A DNA stretch of 64,000 nucleotides. Origin: Alphaproteobacteria bacterium. Its GTDB lineage: Bacteria; Pseudomonadota; Alphaproteobacteria; GCA-2731375. The translations under genes were made by a program, and so were the position numbers. This document shows positions 52,262 to 63,386 of this stretch, in pieces (the first letter of the stretch is position 1; each line of letters opens with the position of its first letter). The stretch is from contig JASMDX010000014.1 in the NCBI GenBank assembly GCA_030752605.1, positions 2,013-66,012 of the forward strand, in the 5' to 3' direction. The notes beneath the pieces are model-generated. The model saw only the letters and a program-made list of their open reading frames with translations. It ran no database searches and was not told where the DNA came from.

Positions 52262-54601
52262 TCAGCCGCGTTTGCGGCGAAATTTTGTAGCCCGTGTACC
52301 GGCACGGCCACCGCTGGAACGGCCCTTGGGGCCGCGGGCGGCCTCCAGCATCTCGGGCGTTATCTCGGTCGCAACCTCTTTCGGAACATAACCCTCGCCG
52401 CGCTTACGCCGGGCCGCCGCGATACCAGGTGCCGCGCCGTCCTTGGAACGGCCCTCAGGGTTACCATCGCCCCTGCGCTGCGTCTCACCCTCGCCGGTCA
52501 AGCCCTTCAACTCCATTTCCTCCAAACGGCGCAACTCGTCCCGCAAGCGCGCAGCATCCTCGAATTCCAAATTAGCGGCTGCGGCGCGCATGCGCTTTTC
52601 TAGATCTTCCATATAGTTCATCAGGTTATGGCCGATCAGATTATTGCGCTCATCATCCCCCGTACCCACGGTGATATGATCACCCTCGTAGACAGACTCC
52701 AAAATATCGGCGATGTTCTTCTTCACGGATTCCGGCGTGATGCCATTGGCCTCGTTGTAGGCCATCTGTTTTTCACGCCGGCGCTCGGTCTCCTCCAATG
52801 CCTGATCGAGACTTTGCGTACGCTTGTCCGCATACAGGATGACCCGGCCATCCACATTTCGCGCCGCCCGCCCAATGGTCTGCACCAACGATGTGGCGGA
52901 GCGCAAAAAGCCCTCCTTGTCCGCATCCAGGATCGCCACCAGAGCGCATTCGGGAATGTCCAGGCCCTCGCGCAGCAGGTTGATGCCGACCAGAATATCG
53001 AACACGCCCAGCCGTAGATCGCGGATGATCTCGATCCGTTCCAGAGTATCAATATCGGAATGCATATAACGCACCTTCAGGCCTGCTTCGTGCATGTACT
53101 CGGTCAGGTCCTCGGCCATGCGCTTGGTCAGGGTGGTGACCAGAACCCGGCCTCCGGCGCCGGTGACATCCCGGCATTCGGCGATTAGGTCATCCACCTG
53201 ATGTTCCACGGGGCGGATGATGCAGGTCGGATCAATCAGGCCCGTGGGGCGGATCACCTGTTCGGTGAAGACGCCGTCGGTGCGTTCCAATTCCCATTTG
53301 CCGGGCGTGGCGGAAATAAACATGCTTTGCGGCCGCATCACCTCCCACTCGGCGAACTTCAAGGGTCGATTGTCGACGCAGGAAGGCAGGCGGAAGCCGA
53401 ATTCGGATAGGGTCCATTTGCGCCGATAGTCGCCTCGAAACATACCGCCCAGTTGAGGCACGGTGACGTGGCTTTCATCCAGGACGATCAGGGCATTGTC
53501 GGGCAGATACTCAAACAAGGTTGGTGGCGGATCACCAGGATTGCGCCCGGTCAGATAGCGGGAATAGTTCTCGATGCCAGGGCAAAAGCCGGCGGCATCC
53601 ATCATTTCCAGATCCAGCATAATGCGCTGTTCAAGGCGCTCCGCCTCCAACAGCATGCCGGCTTGGCGCAGGAATTCCAAACGCTCCAGCAACTCCGCCT
53701 TGATGCCCTTCATGGCCTGCTGCAAGGTTGGGCGTGGCGTAACGTAATGGCTGTTGGCGTACACCTTGACCTTTTCGAACGTCGTGGCCCGCTGCCCGGT
53801 CAGGGGGTCGAACTCAACAATCTCCTCCAACTCATCACCGAACAAAACGAAACGCCAGGCCTGATCTTCCATATGGGCCGGCCACAATTCGACCACATCG
53901 CCACGCACCCGGAAGGTACCCCGGCCAAAGAAATTGTCGTTGCGGCGGTATTGCAGATCCACGAAGCCTTTCAGCAACGCATTGCGGTCCACGGTAGCGC
54001 CTACCTTCAGATCCATGGTCATCTTGGAATAGGTCTCAACCGAGCCGATACCGTAGATGCAAGAGACAGAGGCCACGATGATGACGTCGTCGCGCTCCAA
54101 CAGGGCGCGGGTGGCGGCGTGGCGCATGCGGTCGATCTGCTGATTTATATGCGCCTCTTTCTCGATATAGGTATCAGTGCGGGGCACATAGGCCTCCGGC
54201 TGGTAATAGTCATAGTAGGAGACGAAATATTCCACCGCATTGTTGGGGAAAAAGCCTTTCATCTCGCCATAAAGCTGCGCGGCTAGGGTCTTGTTGGGCG
54301 CCAGCACCAGGGCCGGGCGCTGGGTCCGTTGAATAACCTGAGCCACGGTGTAGGTTTTGCCGGACCCGGTGACCCCCAACAGTACCTGGTTCTGCTCCCC
54401 CGCCTCAACGCCAGCCACCAGCTCGGCGATGGCTTGAGGTTGATCGCCCGCCGGCTCGTACTCCGAGACCAGTTCAAAGGCGTGCCCGCCCTCACCTTTC
54501 TCGGGCCGCTCAATGGGCGCGGGCACCCAAGTGGCCTGCTCCGCCTCGGCCAGGGACTGCTCGAAACTGCCCCGGATCTGTTTCATGGATGTATGTGCCA
54601 T
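52262..54601 (-). CDS. uvrB: Excinuclease ABC subunit B
   Basis: Helicase motifs GVTGSGKT and DESH, a UVR domain and an extended Gly/Arg-rich C-terminal tail; 779 aa. Confidence 0.97.
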
Positions 54602-54804
54602 GGCGCCAGTATAGCGGATTTTTCTCGCCGTCCAGCCGCCCTTTCGAAAACGTGATGACTAGGCCATGAGAGACAGAGCGGAACAATTGTTTCCCAATCC
54701 TGCCGCCTGGTAGCCCGGTCATCGAAGCGCCGGTCCACGCGGTACCGCAGAACTTCTGACTAAACGGCGCGCACTTAACGGATAACTAGAGCATGTCGCG
54801 GCGG

Positions 54805-55602: not shown

Positions 55603-55797
55603 AGCAACCCGTCGTTATCGGGATGCCGCATTGGTTCCTCCCAATCGCTTATAATGCTGACATAATCCGATGCAGCCAGCAAGCGGCGCCACGATGCGGC
55701 ACACGATTCTTGGAATTTGCCCGTTACATTGCGCCCGAATCGAAAAGCCGGCTAAGATAACGCGGTCGCCAAGATTGAACCTTGGGAACCTGACACC

Positions 55798-56500
55798 ATG
55801 CGGTGGATTGTGCCTCTTTTTTGTCTGTTGGCCAGCATTGGCCTATCGCCCGCCACACATGCGCTTGAAAACATCGTTACCGACTTCAATAAATCGGCAC
55901 GAGACATGCGGGTCGTTTACCCACGGGTAATTCTTGATCAAGTGATGGCACTGATGACGAAACAGTTCGGTGCCTACTAAATTCAACCCTTTGGCCAGGC
56001 GCTTTCACGCAAACGCGCGTTGGATGAATTGCAGGCGGGCCGGATAATCGTGTTCGAGGCACCAACGCAAAGGACATGGGAAGAAAGCACCATTCCCATC
56101 GGCATCCGCATTCGCGAAGGGCTCTTGAGTTATAAAATCACCGAGGACAGGCTTGGCATTTTGGCGGCTAGGCTCACCGCGTCCAACAAACCAGCCGGCA
56201 AGACAAGGGCACCAAAGCAACTTACCGCCAAGCCGAAAAAATATTCTGGGGCATTCAGATCGGCGCCTACAACCCAGGGTAGGGACGAAAGGATCCTGGG
56301 ACGAATTCATCGTCAACCCGTTGGCGATTGAATTGACAGAGGCCACGGTTCACTACGTTCCCACCAAGCCGAACAAAAAGGGCAAAACATTAACGCTGAT
56401 CGTCGTCAACGAATATTCCGACCACAAAGCCGCCAATAAAGCCTACGACGACCTAAAGGAAAACGGCCTCGACTGTGTCGCCATCCTCGTTAGACCCTGA
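55798..56500 (+). pseudogene. Hypothetical secreted protein disrupted by an in-frame TAA and a frameshift
   Basis: A signal peptide MRWIVPLFCLLASIGLSPATHA begins ORF 55798..55980. The same frame continues after the TAA at 55981-55983 to 56331. The C-terminal part (...VHYVPTKPNKKGKTLTLIVVNEYSDHKAANKAYDDLKENGLDCVAILVRP) lies in another frame, 56153..56500. The local GC content is lower than in the surrounding sequence. Confidence 0.4.
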
Positions 56501-56582
56501 CGGACGATCTTGTCGCAGGCGGCCAAGTGTGCTCCGCTAGCACCAAGTTGCGATGGTTGCCGTGGATTTGGAGGAGAGACCG

Positions 56583-58319
56583 ATGCGCAGGACGCGGCTC
56601 AGCTTTGGCGAACGCCTGATCGCTATTCTCAAACAGGAAGGCGTCGAGGTAATATTCTCTCAGGGCGACCTTTCTATGAAGGATATCCAACTGCATGCCG
56701 AGGCCCAGGGCCTGAAGGTTGTCGGCCCTCGCCACGAGGCCTCCGCCATTTTCATGGCCATGGGCTATCACGCCATGACCGGCAAGGTTCAAGTCGCCAT
56801 TGGCGCGCCGGGCCCGGGCCAGGCCAATTTGCTGCCCGCCGCCATTACCGCCGCCCAGGAACATATTCCCGTCATTATCTTTGGTGCCCGCCGCCAGCAC
56901 GCGGTCGATACCGCAGTACGACGTGGCCGCTGGCTGTATGCCTCCCTGCTGCCCAACTTCAAGGAGGTCTGCAAATTCGCCGCCAAGCTGGAACAGCTTA
57001 GCCATCTCGATGAAGTGGTGCATGAGGCCTTCCGCCAAGCATTGAGCGGCACGCCGGGGCCGGTCTATATCGAATATGACGCTGAGCTTAACGAGAGGTC
57101 AGCCGATTTCCCCAGCCTCCCATCGCCCAGCCGCTACCGTGCGCCGGCGCAACCGGCACCGGCGGGGGCGATTGAAGATGCCCACCGAATGCTGCGAGCG
57201 GCGCGCGCTCCCATATTGCTGGCCGGCGCAGGGGTGCAGCGTTCGCGGGCCCAGGGCGCCTTTGTTAAATTGGCGCATAGGCTGAAATGCCCCGTGCTAA
57301 CAACCTTGGGCGGTGCCGGCGCCTTTCCAGAGACCGAGGCGCAATGGCTGCGTTATATGGGCCAGGCGGGCGGCAAAGCTATCGCGGCAGCGGATTTGCT
57401 GTTGGTGGTCGGAACGTGTTTGCCGGAAACCGCGAACTATGGCCGCCTGCAAAACTTCGCGGCCAATGACGAAGGCCGGCAGGTCATCCTGATCGAACCC
57501 GATGCCGCCGCCGTCGGGGTCAATCGCCCCATCGACCTGGCGCTTATCGGACAGATTGATCTGGTGCTGGCGCAGTTGCTCGAGACGGTGGGCGACGGCG
57601 CCGCGTTCCCGGAACATGCCGAGCTTGAAAAATGGCGCAAGTCCTCGAAGGCAGAGGATAAGGCGTTGATGGATAACCTGCCGCGCTCCAACCGTTTGCA
57701 TCCCGGGCATTTGATGATCGAGGCGCGCAAGGCGGTGCCCGAGGAAGCGGTCATTGTCGTCGATGGCGGGCTGACCATGCTCTATCAATATGCCTTCTTC
57801 GAAAAGCAATCCGCCGAGTTCATTTATACCGCCAATTTCGGCCATCTCGGCTCCGGCATGGGGCTGGCGATTGGGGCCCAGCTGGCGGCACAATCAGATA
57901 CCGGGCGGGCCCAGCCGGTTTGCCTGATCTCCGGCGACGGCGCCCTGGGTTTTCACATCATGGATTTCGAAACCGCCGTGCGCCACAGCCTGCCCATCGT
58001 CATCGTCCTCAACGACGATCAGGCGCTGGGTGCGGAAATGGCCCAGCACATGCAGCATATCGGCCACGAAATCCAGGTCACCTTCAGCCCGGTCAACTAC
58101 GCGGCAATGGCCGAGGCGATGGGCGGCATTGGCATCCGGGTGGAACGGCGCGAGGATATCGCGGCGGCCGTCAAAGAGGCGTTTACGCAGGCAGCCGCGC
58201 GGAACAAGCCGGCGATCGTACAGGTCCCCACCGATCAGGATGCTTCCTACACATATCCGGTGCCCTATGTCGGCGAACTCGCGGGCTGGAAGGGGGCGGA
58301 TGTTCTGGCGCGGATTTAG
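56583..58319 (+). CDS. Thiamine-pyrophosphate enzyme of the acetolactate-synthase-like family (sulfoacetaldehyde acetyltransferase/Xsc-like?)
   Basis: Three-domain ALS-like architecture with the TPP motif ISGDGALGFH...VLNDD. A strong GGAGGAG Shine-Dalgarno sequence precedes the ATG at 56583. It is in an operon with the ComA-family gene (49-bp gap). Confidence 0.8.
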   Translation: MRRTRLSFGERLIAILKQEGVEVIFSQGDLSMKDIQLHAEAQGLKVVGPRHEASAIFMAMGYHAMTGKVQVAIGAPGPGQANLLPAAITAAQEHIPVIIFGARRQHAVDTAVRRGRWLYASLLPNFKEVCKFAAKLEQLSHLDEVVHEAFRQALSGTPGPVYIEYDAELNERSADFPSLPSPSRYRAPAQPAPAGAIEDAHRMLRAARAPILLAGAGVQRSRAQGAFVKLAHRLKCPVLTTLGGAGAFPETEAQWLRYMGQAGGKAIAAADLLLVVGTCLPETANYGRLQNFAANDEGRQVILIEPDAAAVGVNRPIDLALIGQIDLVLAQLLETVGDGAAFPEHAELEKWRKSSKAEDKALMDNLPRSNRLHPGHLMIEARKAVPEEAVIVVDGGLTMLYQYAFFEKQSAEFIYTANFGHLGSGMGLAIGAQLAAQSDTGRAQPVCLISGDGALGFHIMDFETAVRHSLPIVIVLNDDQALGAEMAQHMQHIGHEIQVTFSPVNYAAMAEAMGGIGIRVERREDIAAAVKEAFTQAAARNKPAIVQVPTDQDASYTYPVPYVGELAGWKGADVLARI

Positions 58320-59188: not shown

Positions 59189-60046
59189 CTAAATATCGAA
59201 ATGCATGACTGGCTCGAACAGCCCGGCCTTGAAGATCAGCACACGGAAGGTGAAAAAACCCGCCAGCACGCCGACCGCACCCACGGCCTGGCTTGTTGGC
59301 GCGCCGCCGCCCAGCCACAACGCCGCGAAAGGCAGCAGGATACCCGCCGCCAATACCACACCATGGAACCATTTGGCGTAAAGCGTCCTGATCAGCAACT
59401 CCGCTGACAGCTTGCCGCCAGGCGCCCCATGATAAGCGCCGTACAGAAGGCCAAGAAGCATCATCAAATCCGCCAGTAACAATCCCATCGCCAGATAGCT
59501 CAACTGGGTTGCCAGTCCGCCCCCCGCCAACGGCAGCGTCAGAACGACACCGCCGGTCAGACCATAAAGCAAAGAGGAAATAGGCATCATTGCCGTGTTC
59601 CAAAGGGCAACTGCACTGGACTGAGACATCGCGAAACCTTGATAGGTCATCACGATCAATGCCGAAGCTCCAGCCAGCCATGGCAACAGACCGCCCAACG
59701 GCACAGCGCCAGCCGTCATGACATTTATCGTGTGCAAGATACCTGCACCCATAAAAACAATGGTCGCGATCAAACCGCGGCTGGTCCAGGAGCGGTCAGG
59801 GCGCAAAATGGCGCGCCAGGATTTTCCCGGCACGCCCATGTGGGTCAAATGAAAGAATGGCTTGCCGATACCCTTGATTAGCAAGCCGAGGATCATGCCC
59901 GGCACCACGCCACAAAGCATCGAGACAAGAAACAGTCCCGCACCCAGTTCGCCGCAGAAGAAAGCGGCCGCCATTGCCGCACCCCAATGCCGCTGGGCGC
60001 GGCAGCCCAAACGAAAATTGTCGCCAACCATTTCAGCTTTTTGCAT
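59189..60046 (-). CDS. NrfD/PsrC-type membrane anchor subunit of a molybdoenzyme (SoeC-like)
   Basis: 285 aa with about 8 TM segments in an NrfD-like pattern. Last gene of the A-B-C operon. Confidence 0.7.
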   Translation of the reverse strand: MQKAEMVGDNFRLGCRAQRHWGAAMAAAFFCGELGAGLFLVSMLCGVVPGMILGLLIKGIGKPFFHLTHMGVPGKSWRAILRPDRSWTSRGLIATIVFMGAGILHTINVMTAGAVPLGGLLPWLAGASALIVMTYQGFAMSQSSAVALWNTAMMPISSLLYGLTGGVVLTLPLAGGGLATQLSYLAMGLLLADLMMLLGLLYGAYHGAPGGKLSAELLIRTLYAKWFHGVVLAAGILLPFAALWLGGGAPTSQAVGAVGVLAGFFTFRVLIFKAGLFEPVMHFDI

Positions 60047-60049
60047 GGG

Positions 60050-60673
60050 TTAATCCACGTAGTAGACGCTGGGTTGGGTGTTCTTCTCGGGCATCGGCGT
60101 GCGGCCGTTGCGCCGGCGGATCAGTTTACTGGCCTTGCTATCGGGATCGCTCCGGTCGCCAAAGATCCGCGCTTCGGTGGGGCAGCTGACAACGCAGGCG
60201 GGCTGCAGCCCGCGATCAACGCGAGCGCTGCAGAAATCGCACTTGGCCACCGTACCGGTCTGCCAGCGCTCGTCCCGGTCCGCCTCAAAAGCCTGTCTGT
60301 TACCTTCGCCGAAATAGCTCTTTTGCAGGATTGCCTTGGTTAGCTGCGTTCGGTTGTCGTAGGGGCAGGCGACAGCGCAGGCGTTACAGCCGATGCATTT
60401 CTCCTGATCGACCATCACGATGCCGTCGTCCCGTGTATGGGTGGCATCGGAAGGGCAGGCCTTCTCACAGGGCGCATCCTCGCAATGATTACACAAAGTG
60501 GGGATATAGTGGCGCCGAACATTGGGAAAGGAACCCACTTCGGTGACAAAGGTGCGGGTGAAGAAAACATCCTCCGGCAGGCTGTTTTCCGTCTTGCAGG
60601 CGACAACGCAGGCATTGCAGCCAATGCAACGGTTCAGATCGAACACCATGCCCCATTTTGTCATGACCGGCAC
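60050..60673 (-). CDS. Four-cluster [4Fe-4S] ferredoxin subunit (DmsB/NarH/SoeB-like)
   Basis: Four CxxCxxCxxxCP motifs; 207 aa. Confidence 0.85.
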   Translation of the reverse strand: MPVMTKWGMVFDLNRCIGCNACVVACKTENSLPEDVFFTRTFVTEVGSFPNVRRHYIPTLCNHCEDAPCEKACPSDATHTRDDGIVMVDQEKCIGCNACAVACPYDNRTQLTKAILQKSYFGEGNRQAFEADRDERWQTGTVAKCDFCSARVDRGLQPACVVSCPTEARIFGDRSDPDSKASKLIRRRNGRTPMPEKNTQPSVYYVD

Positions 60674-60676
60674 ACC

Positions 60677-63244
60677 CTAACTTTCCACCTTTTGGATTTT
60701 CACCTTACCGATGGTTTCCATGGTGCCCCCCAGCATGCCGGTGTGGGCCAGATCAATGGCAAGATGGGCGTTCTGGCTGATGCCGATGCCGTCAGCCACG
60801 GGATGATGGCTGCCCCGGCCAAAGCCGCCCGAGATGGCCGCTGTTTGGGGATGGATGCCCTCGGACAGGCCGACAACACCCTTGGCTTTGGCATGGCGCG
60901 ATTCAACCCAAACGGCATCGCCTTCCTTCAGCGATCTGGCCTTGGCGGTGGTGGCATTGATCACCACCTTGATTAGCTGCGGATCCCGTTTCGCCACATC
61001 CATGAGGATCGGATTGGTCGCCGTATCGGCATAGGTGGTCATGGCGGATTTGTAGGAGATGACATAGAAGTCGAACTCCGCATCTACCGCATGAACGGGA
61101 CTGGCCTCCCAAAACGGCACTCCCTTGTAGACATCGGTACGGATTCGCAGCCCGTGCTTCTTCTCTATCTCGTGGCGGGCCAGGTTTTCCTTCAACTCAT
61201 CGCCGACCGTCTTGATATAGTTAAAGAACAGCGGCAGCCTGGCATCTCCATATATGCAGTATTTCTGATCCGGCTTGAGAGGCTGGAAATCATTGCCATA
61301 TCGCTGGTACCAGGCAAGATCCTTGCTGCCCTGGGAATGGCATTTGGCCTGAATATCCAGAACCTCGTCGTGGCGGTATTTGCGTTTGAGGTCCAATTCG
61401 AAAGGCGGTGACAGACCCAAAGTCCGGTTCAGGGCCGCATTGAAGCCGTTCGGGCCGAACAGGAAATCCGCCCGTTCCGCCAGCTCAATCAGGATATCCA
61501 TACCATCCATGGTGTCATGCAGCGGCGGCACCACCGGCTGCGCCACCTGCAGGCCCACCCTGTCGTGGCTCCAATTAATGAAATTGTAGCGCTCCAGGTA
61601 GGTATGTTCAGGCAAGACCACGTCGGCGAAATCGGTCGCTTCATCAAGGTAGATATTGATGGAGACCACGAGATCGAGTTTCTTCAGAGCCCTCGCGACG
61701 ACGCTGCCATCACCGCTATTGGTGAACGGGTTGGAATGATAGATCACCAGCGCCTCGGGCGCGTAGTCAAAGCCGAAGTTCTCCGGATTGAGTGTCGTCC
61801 ACGGCACCAAATGCCCCATGTCGCAGGCCAGCGGGCCGTAGTCCCGCAATTCCAGGCTCTTCGGCGGATAGGAAAACGGCGTATAGAGATGCCAGCCGGT
61901 GGAATGAGGCTGGATCATGCCGTCTTCGCCCTTGGCCAGCATGCGCGGTCCGCCGCCAAAACGCCGCGCGTCCATGCTTTTGGGCAGCTGGCCGCCGGGC
62001 ACGCCGAGGGCACCGACCAGCATTAGGACCGTTTCCTGGGCCAACATGGCATTGGCCCCGTTGGTATGCGCCTGCAGGCCGCGATAGGACAGCATGGATA
62101 CGGGCCGGTAGGGGTATTCGACGCCATCGATAACGATGGTCTGGCCGATACAGGCGGCGGCGGCGAATTCCTCGGTGATGCGCCGGATCGTGGCCGCCGG
62201 AATATCGCAAATGCCCTCCGCCCACTCCGGCGTATAGCTTGTCGTTTCATCCTTCAGGTACTGGAACGCCGGCACGCATTCGACGCCATCGACGACGTAG
62301 CTGCCCTCAAGGCTGTAATCGCCAATAGAGCCGTCCTCAAAGGACTTCGCAACACCCGCCGCCGCGTCCCAGACCAGCGGTTTGCCAGTTGCCGGATCGG
62401 TCACGAAATTCCTTTCGGGGTCCAGCAGATAAGGCGCATTGGTACCCTTCTTTAGCCACTCGGCATCATAGATTCCGTATTCGTGCAGCAGCAGATAAAT
62501 CATCGCCAGCAGCAGAGCCAGATCCGTGGCTGGCTTGATCGGCAGCCAGTCATCGGCCTTACTGGCGGCCACGGAGAGGCGGGGATCGGCGACCACCAGC
62601 TTTAGTCCCCGCTCCCGCGCCTCGGCCAGTTCACGCGCGATCCTGACCGATGACTGATAGGCCCCAAAGCCGTATTCCGAGCCCAGCAGGATCAGATAAT
62701 TGCAGTATTCCAGATCGGGGAATTCGACCAAGGCGCCGTGGGTGATCATGCCGACGAAATGATTGGGGTTGGCGCATTGGTTGGAGACGCCGCTAAAACA
62801 AAAACCGTTGTTCGTGGTACCGTAGGCCGCGCCCCAGGCAATGGATTGGATATATTTTTCATACGGCCACAGGGAACAGATCAACTTGTTCGGATTTTCC
62901 TGGCGGATCGTCCGCAATTTATCCCCGACCAGATCGAGCGCTTCCTCCCAACTTGCCTCGCGCCACTTGGGATCGATATTCCTGCCCTTTTCAGGGTTGG
63001 TGCGGATCAGCGGCGTCTTTACCCGGTATGGATCGTAGTACTTAGAGACCCCGGATAAGCCCCGCGCGCACAGATGGCCCAATGTATTGGGATCGTCGGC
63101 ATCGCCTCTGATCCGGACCGGATTGCCGTCCTTGACCTGGACAACGATGCCACAGGCATTGAAGCACTGCTGACAATGGCTCTTGATCCATATCTCAGCC
63201 GGCGTCTCCGAAACTTCGGCACCAGCTGCATTTTGAGCTTCCAT
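60677..63244 (-). CDS. Molybdopterin (bis-MGD) oxidoreductase catalytic subunit without a Tat signal (SoeA-like sulfite dehydrogenase candidate)
   Basis: N-terminal FeS motif CQQCFNACGIVV...C, no twin-arginine signal peptide and an 855-aa length. It is followed by the FeS and NrfD subunits in the order A-B-C. Confidence 0.8.
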   Translation of the reverse strand: MEAQNAAGAEVSETPAEIWIKSHCQQCFNACGIVVQVKDGNPVRIRGDADDPNTLGHLCARGLSGVSKYYDPYRVKTPLIRTNPEKGRNIDPKWREASWEEALDLVGDKLRTIRQENPNKLICSLWPYEKYIQSIAWGAAYGTTNNGFCFSGVSNQCANPNHFVGMITHGALVEFPDLEYCNYLILLGSEYGFGAYQSSVRIARELAEARERGLKLVVADPRLSVAASKADDWLPIKPATDLALLLAMIYLLLHEYGIYDAEWLKKGTNAPYLLDPERNFVTDPATGKPLVWDAAAGVAKSFEDGSIGDYSLEGSYVVDGVECVPAFQYLKDETTSYTPEWAEGICDIPAATIRRITEEFAAAACIGQTIVIDGVEYPYRPVSMLSYRGLQAHTNGANAMLAQETVLMLVGALGVPGGQLPKSMDARRFGGGPRMLAKGEDGMIQPHSTGWHLYTPFSYPPKSLELRDYGPLACDMGHLVPWTTLNPENFGFDYAPEALVIYHSNPFTNSGDGSVVARALKKLDLVVSINIYLDEATDFADVVLPEHTYLERYNFINWSHDRVGLQVAQPVVPPLHDTMDGMDILIELAERADFLFGPNGFNAALNRTLGLSPPFELDLKRKYRHDEVLDIQAKCHSQGSKDLAWYQRYGNDFQPLKPDQKYCIYGDARLPLFFNYIKTVGDELKENLARHEIEKKHGLRIRTDVYKGVPFWEASPVHAVDAEFDFYVISYKSAMTTYADTATNPILMDVAKRDPQLIKVVINATTAKARSLKEGDAVWVESRHAKAKGVVGLSEGIHPQTAAISGGFGRGSHHPVADGIGISQNAHLAIDLAHTGMLGGTMETIGKVKIQKVES

Positions 63245-63386
63245 CTTCCGCTACCACATATGATTTGGCGGTAACGATAGCATAACGCTTCGTCCGAGGC
63301 GTGCTTTTGCATACATTGCCGCCGCACTAGCTTGCTATCGTAATGTGGTATCATGCCGACGTGCGGCATCGAAAAAGGATTGAAGC

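Follow-up and report, generated by a model that had tools for sequence, protein, structure and literature searches.

The sulfite:quinone oxidoreductase SoeABC has been described from Allochromatium vinosum and Aquifex aeolicus (Dahl 2013; Boughanemi 2020; as summarised in a passage of PMC8076601). Its catalytic subunit SoeA ligates molybdenum with a cysteine (PMC10100899), and the complex was reported as the single sulfite dehydrogenase of genomes that also have dsr or sHdr genes (PMC6397845). Phenylacetyl-CoA:acceptor oxidoreductase PadBCD (EC 1.17.5.1), known from Thauera aromatica and Aromatoleum (Rhee & Fuchs 1999; as cited in passages of PMC13416013 and PMC5109826), has a cytoplasmic substrate according to the same passages. 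Here we describe a three-gene set from an alphaproteobacterium (GenBank assembly GCA_030752605.1, contig JASMDX010000014.1, positions 2,013 to 66,012; this whole stretch of 64,000 nucleotides is called the window), for which an earlier note on the same DNA had suggested SoeABC.

The set comprises the following genes:

60677-63244, minus strand: subunit A (855 aa), molybdenum-bis(pyranopterin guanine dinucleotide) (Mo-bisPGD) catalytic subunit without a leader for the twin-arginine translocation (Tat) pathway
60050-60673, minus strand: subunit B (207 aa from the GTG at 60673, 204 aa from the ATG at 60664), four-cluster [4Fe-4S] electron-transfer subunit of the PsrB/DmsB type
59189-60046, minus strand: subunit C (285 aa), 8-helix membrane anchor of the PsrC/NrfD fold with a presumed quinone site

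The three open reading frames (ORFs) are tightly packed on the minus strand of 59189-63244 with gaps of 3-12 nt, and the Mo/FeS/anchor set in the order A-B-C that had been read from this interval is indeed there. The set is intact, and its product is probably a complex iron-sulfur molybdoenzyme, anchored in the membrane and facing the cytoplasm. It would belong to an uncharacterised clade, which is distinct from SoeABC and nearest to the PadBCD type.

Subunits and orientation in the membrane

Subunit A is composed of the Pfam domains Molybdop_Fe4S4 (PF04879), Molybdopterin (PF00384) and Molydop_binding (PF01568). Its N-terminus, MEAQNAAGAEVSETPAEIWIKSHCQQC, leads into a canonical FS0 motif for a [4Fe-4S] cluster, C24-x2-C27-x3-C31-x27-C59 (CQQCFNACG). 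Among the NCBIfam models none scored over its cut-off, the best being PhsA with 287.7 bits against 694, and the best relative of solved structure is PsrA from T. thermophilus (E 2.4e-51). The alignment of the active site that the earlier note had recommended was run with PsrA: C157 of A, in the Mo-ligand motif SNQCANPNH, falls opposite Cys173, the Mo ligand of PsrA, and R380 opposite Arg332, both residues being invariant in 12 diverse homologues. Cys157 is predicted to be the Mo ligand of A. These matches place A among the Cys-ligated Psr/Soe/Pad enzymes of the superfamily; its substrate is not given by them.

Subunit B is a Fer4_11 protein (Pfam) with 16 cysteines in four groups (16/19/22/26, 61/64/69/73, 93/96/99/103 and 145/148/160/164), a four-cluster ferredoxin; against the ArrB, DsrO and TtrB models every score stayed under the cut-off. 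Because the close homologues all begin there (MTKW/MARW/MPRWGMVF), three codons after the GTG at 60673, the ATG at 60664 is favoured and is probably the true start, yielding a protein of 204 aa.

For subunit C Pfam reported no NrfD match and only DmsC below threshold (18.4 bits, cut-off 22.3), and a profile search with C against PDB sequences found no match. An AlphaFold model built from 37 homologues (pLDDT 91.7) has eight transmembrane (TM) helices:

C, TM helices: 23-45, 48-70, 87-110, 120-141, 153-174, 179-205, 224-246, 250-274

With this model Foldseek retrieved PsrC (2vpw_C, TMt 0.75) on top, followed by ActC chains of alternative complex III. The "NrfD partner" of the earlier note stands by fold and falls by Pfam, and going by the model C has the NrfD-type fold although Pfam misses it. 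The three Pfam domains of A, the 16 cysteines of B and the haem-less PsrC-fold anchor with eight TM helices are together those of a complex iron-sulfur molybdoenzyme.

Subunit A has no RR motif, and there is no room for a Tat leader because the FS0 motif begins too early, its first cysteine following after 23 residues. The frame upstream of A reads ATG TGG TAG CGG AAG ATG, so that the TAG at 63251-63253, in frame and two codons upstream of A, excludes a longer start. An upstream start with a cryptic Tat signal is ruled out by this stop codon and by the identical start in the 91%-identical orthologue. B has no signal peptide either, which makes a hitch-hiking export of A unlikely. The motif CxxCxxxC was found in 106 of the 120 listed homologues of A, the median position being residue 20, and a genuine Tat leader in only one of the 120, the distant P0117. 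The loops of the C model bear 10 lysine plus arginine residues (K+R) where the termini lie and 0 on the opposite side, and the same bias is seen in 37/37 homologues of C (mean 12.7 versus 0.8). Because of this bias and the positive-inside rule both termini of C are predicted to be cytoplasmic, the inverse of PsrC, whose termini are on the P side (PMC8076601).

A cytoplasm-facing orientation of the complex is supported by these sequence features. The earlier note was right in describing A as devoid of an RR motif or signal and the complex as facing the cytoplasm, and the anchor topology, which it wanted predicted, came out with eight TM helices and cytoplasmic termini.

Rare relatives with genuine Tat leaders (SRRGFLQ..., MEIGRRGFIKGMGALGG) exist: P0117 and L092, the latter from a metagenome-assembled genome (MAG) of Sulfuritalea. 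Their leaders indicate one or more changes of orientation close to the base of A's family.

Position relative to SoeA and PadB

P0245 served as SoeA reference (958 aa, Tat-less, motifs CYMCACRCG and GGFCS); it stems from a Sulfuritalea MAG in which dsrA is present as well, and several of its relatives (82-90% identity) are named "sulfite dehydrogenase (quinone) subunit SoeA" by JGI, where many true SoeA entries bear a COG name only. NCBIfam has no SoeA model and canonical SoeA itself passes none, so that the missing SoeA match of A is uninformative alone. A and P0245 are 25% identical with 19% gaps. In a like-for-like BLASTP comparison with A, a member of its own family scored 490 bits, L092 327, the PadB type 264-272 and SoeA 181. 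In a maximum likelihood (ML) tree of 35 sequences with SH-aLRT supports, A's family (18 rows, support 99), the PadB type (100) and SoeA (100) form three separate clades; A's family, the PadB type and the Tat-bearing L092 are joined with support 98, and SoeA is outside.

The genome itself encodes two more Tat-less trios, with the catalytic subunits P0124 and P0125, both 32-34% identical to A:

L002:1486-4215, minus strand: PadBCD-type molybdoenzyme P0124, 909 aa
L003:1468-4224, minus strand: PadBCD-type molybdoenzyme P0125, 918 aa

At the P0125 locus the iron-sulfur and anchor subunits are fused to a 540-aa protein and a thiolase-like gene adjoins; relatives of P0125 are named phenylacetyl-CoA:acceptor oxidoreductase by JGI. 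The ESM Atlas cluster nearest to A is also labelled "related to phenylacetyl-CoA:acceptor oxidoreductase" (TM 0.95). PadB orthology of A was rejected at 32-34% identity and with the clades separate, and the window and the orthologue loci of A yielded no phenylacetate-CoA ligase, thioesterase or padEFGHI. By score and tree A is nearer to the PadBCD-type enzymes and yet not a member of them.

The co-occurrence of genes in genomes provides evidence independent of the tree. In two of the five genomes checked an orthologue of A is found beside canonical soeABC, namely in G403, the nearest relative, whose orthologue is 91% identical to A, and in G405, a Pseudorhodoplanes MAG. SoeA orthology of A was rejected on the 25% identity, the separate clade and this co-occurrence; together with the differing FS0 and Mo-ligand motifs (see below) they speak against the proposed SoeABC identity, and as far as sequence comparison goes the enzyme is not SoeABC. 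Nor is a Tat-less A-B-C trio the hallmark of SoeABC for which it had been taken, because PadBCD shares the layout. The fallback of the earlier note, a divergent or new subgroup, holds, A being found in a well-supported clade apart from SoeA.

Genomic context and alternative readings

Orthologues of A with at least 70% identity were found only in MAGs, from Rhodospirillaceae, other Alphaproteobacteria, Burkholderiales and Bryobacteraceae; of 400 other genomes that were sampled within the class, 2 have one. The wider family (35-41% identity) is present in Chloroflexota, Terriglobia, Thermodesulfobacteriota, Tectomicrobia, Methylomirabilota, Actinomycetota and archaea. Altogether A's family spans more than 10 phyla, and all relatives found are from MAGs. 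A search for named relatives on plasmids turned up only generic names. Often 3-4 paralogues of the catalytic subunit are present within single MAGs:

L039/L056/L061/L071: paralogues of one Thermodesulfobacteriota MAG
L047/L050/L088: paralogues of a second MAG
L041/L074/L089: paralogues of a third MAG

The pattern of many paralogues in many phyla suggests a substrate-diversified catabolic family.

The gene order is usually A-B-C, a few distant loci having B and C upstream of A. To the 118 genes directly flanking members of the family, Pfam most often assigned NMT1-type binding proteins, xanthine-dehydrogenase-family proteins, IclR/TetR/GntR regulators, hydantoinase, UbiD/UbiX, SDR and P450; Dsr, Sox, Apr and rhodanese are not among the 25 commonest. 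In three orthologue loci polysaccharide-deacetylase-like genes lie downstream of C, in two of them together with an amidase. This context points to organic catabolism rather than to sulfite.

In the orthologue locus from Pseudorhodoplanes, A and B are separated by an FdhD/NarQ-family gene for Mo-cofactor sulfuration (L013:11347-12402, plus strand), and similar ORFs (ORF cluster 18, four loci) adjoin A in three other loci. By analogy with formate dehydrogenases, FdhD beside A hints at a sulfido ligand on Mo.

The complex could instead be a sulfite:quinone oxidoreductase, a SoeABC analogue from another clade that clears sulfite from rDsr or from organosulfonate enzymes (the ComA-like and Xsc-like neighbours), which we regard as rather unlikely. 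Like SoeA (PMC10100899), A has a predicted Cys ligand in a complex facing the cytoplasm, and the genome harbors a complete dsr cluster of the oxidative type:

Contig C55 (L111), about 66700-79800: dsrABEFHCMKLJOPN
Contig C55 (L111), 53659-54786: sat
Contig C55 (L111), 55708-57504: aprA

Moreover, canonical soeA was not found in the genome, of whose proteins A is the most similar to SoeA. Contig C74 (about 88300-88700; L110 5968-13996) is colinear at 83-84% identity with the soe locus on contig C33 of G403 (L109), except for a gap of 4.34 kb: in place of L109 416-4757, which holds soeA, soeB and the 5' portion of soeC, C74 has about 51 bp, and its 3' relic of soeC retains 86% protein identity over 52 aa. 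The genome appears to have lost canonical soeABC by a 4.3-kb deletion, an artefact of the MAG assembly being possible. The need for A as sulfite dehydrogenase after this loss is weakened by sat and aprA, which lie 20 kb from the dsr cluster on the same contig and constitute an existing cytoplasmic route of sulfite oxidation; by its gene content the organism is a Dsr-type sulfur oxidiser relying on the adenosine 5'-phosphosulfate route for sulfite. In G403 and G405 the orthologues of A exist alongside canonical soeABC, with which A itself shares only its low identity. In none of the five orthologue-bearing genomes did dsrA score over the cut-off (four without a match, G404 with a partial match below it), and the family as a whole has no enrichment of sulfur genes beside it.

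This leaves the neighbours. ComA-family and Xsc-like thiamine pyrophosphate (TPP)-enzyme genes converge on C in the window, in favour of the sulfite reading, but they recur only in the 91%-identical relative (L011), 7 kb further off, the extra 7 kb between C and ComA/TPP containing an aldo-keto reductase, a family III CoA-transferase and a cyclase-like gene. TPP enzymes are within 10 kb in 5 of 79 loci, which does not convince. A functional link of the operon to the ComA/TPP genes is unsupported, and they are probably merely neighbours.

A second alternative, which we likewise hold to be rather unlikely, is the reductive direction, a quinol-dependent reductase of a cytoplasmic acceptor (S- or N-oxide, polysulfide, thiosulfate or tetrathionate-like). 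It can draw on PsrA as best solved relative and PhsA as best NCBIfam model, on the resemblance of QCANP in A to LCTAP in PsrA, on the conserved active-site arginine, and on the Tat-bearing L092 as closest sequence outside A's family. A nevertheless scores far below the family cut-offs (288 versus 694 bits), for the two characterised cytoplasm-facing enzymes of the type, SoeABC (PMC8076601) and PadBCD (PMC5109826), substrate oxidation with quinone reduction has been reported, and the genes flanking the family are catabolic rather than respiratory.

Several points weigh against an organic-substrate oxidase of a clade of its own. The ML tree contains no named PsrA, PhsA, TtrA or Arr references. 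In the approximately unbiased (AU) test a tree joining A's family with SoeA was not rejected (p = 0.067), which leaves the deep branching order unsettled: on the sequences compared A is excluded from the SoeA clade, a sister placement to SoeA is not. The flanks of the family are highly variable without a conserved partner, and with soeABC lost and sulfite arising in the cytoplasm from the oxidative dsr system a sulfite role for A is conceivable. Finally, reaction direction and substrate are inferred, because the clade has no characterised member. That A is a true but diverged orthologue of SoeABC or PadBCD, as subunit layout, orientation and the sister relation allowed by the AU test would permit, is very improbable, since the clades are separate and each strongly supported, the canonical types co-occur with it (two PadB-type paralogues here; SoeA in G403, G405 and G401), sizes and motifs differ, and no phenylacetate-CoA ligase, thioesterase or padEFGHI is found beside A.

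Upstream of A the window continues with:

63245-63386, no strand assigned: intergenic region between A and the divergent CMD-family gene, presumed operon promoter
63387-64127, plus strand: CMD-family gene, followed by an MFS gene, also on the plus strand

The operon promoter presumably lies within 63245-63386. Past the end of the window, 66262-68966 (L112 4275-6979) encodes a cytochrome c554-like secreted protein and then a protein of 576 aa in which cyclic-nucleotide-binding domains are joined to a 4Fe-4S dicluster domain, an unusual, sensor-like architecture.

Proposed mechanism and comparison with known systems

In the reading that we prefer, an oxidase of organic substrates distinct from SoeABC and nearest to PadBCD, A binds Mo-bisPGD via the predicted ligand Cys157 and carries one [4Fe-4S] cluster, and B carries four. 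C is the haem-less PsrC-fold anchor with predicted cytoplasmic termini, which puts A and B on the cytoplasmic face. A cytoplasmic substrate would be oxidised with water as oxygen source, and its electrons would run along the chain of five clusters to a quinone bound by C, as they do in PadBCD and SoeABC; by analogy with these two, oxidation of the substrate coupled to quinone reduction is probably the direction. Organic acids, CoA thioesters and N-containing or aromatic compounds would be the most likely substrates.

More tentatively, and with a good deal of doubt, the family may be a third group beside SoeABC and PadBCD, which catalyzes the O2-independent, water-dependent hydroxylation of organic compounds other than phenylacetyl-CoA, e.g. 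cyclic amides, N-heterocycles or other carboxylates, and which gene transfer has carried through uncultured bacteria and archaea of soil and groundwater, each genome having several paralogues specialised by substrate. Tat-less Mo/FeS/NrfD trios tend to be annotated as SoeABC, both automatically and by eye, sulfite oxidation being deduced from the name, and at least three separate clades share this layout; A's clade would be a false positive in metagenome-based surveys of the sulfur cycle. Being large, present in many phyla and with multiple paralogues per genome, and having no characterised member, the clade is a target for new O2-independent oxidation chemistry.

PsrABC from T. thermophilus (PDB 2vpw) and PhsABC supply the best solved-structure and the best profile match for A, and with PsrABC the complex shares the aligned Cys ligand and active-site arginine, a similar Mo-ligand motif and the fold of the anchor. 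It differs in that PsrA is Tat-exported and its AB module periplasmic, whereas A is leaderless and the anchor C predicted to be inverted, and from PhsABC in that A stays far under the PhsA cut-off.

With SoeABC it shares the AB module facing the cytoplasm, the predicted Cys ligand, FS0 together with a four-cluster B, the 8-TM anchor in inverted orientation and the gene order A-B-C. It differs in size, A with 855 aa being shorter than canonical SoeA (958-962 aa; typically about 950-975), as had been noticed before, and in its motifs, CQQCFNACG and NQCANP in A versus CYMCACRCG and GGFCS in SoeA. Canonical SoeC is over the Pfam cut-off for DmsC with 61.5 bits, whereas C with its 18.4 bits is not and matches PsrC by fold.

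PadBCD is the Tat-less clade nearest to A, whether judged by score or by the ML tree. Like PadBCD, the complex is a Tat-less membrane-bound Mo/FeS/anchor trio with similar subunit sizes, and like in PadBCD FdhD adjoins some members of the family. The FS0 motif is canonical in A (C-x2-C-x3-C, with PF04879) and degenerate in the PadB-type paralogues (C-x2-C, then Pro/Asp, without PF04879), and the Mo-ligand motif SNQCANPNH of A is replaced by GVKC(T/Y)HSEH in the PadB type.

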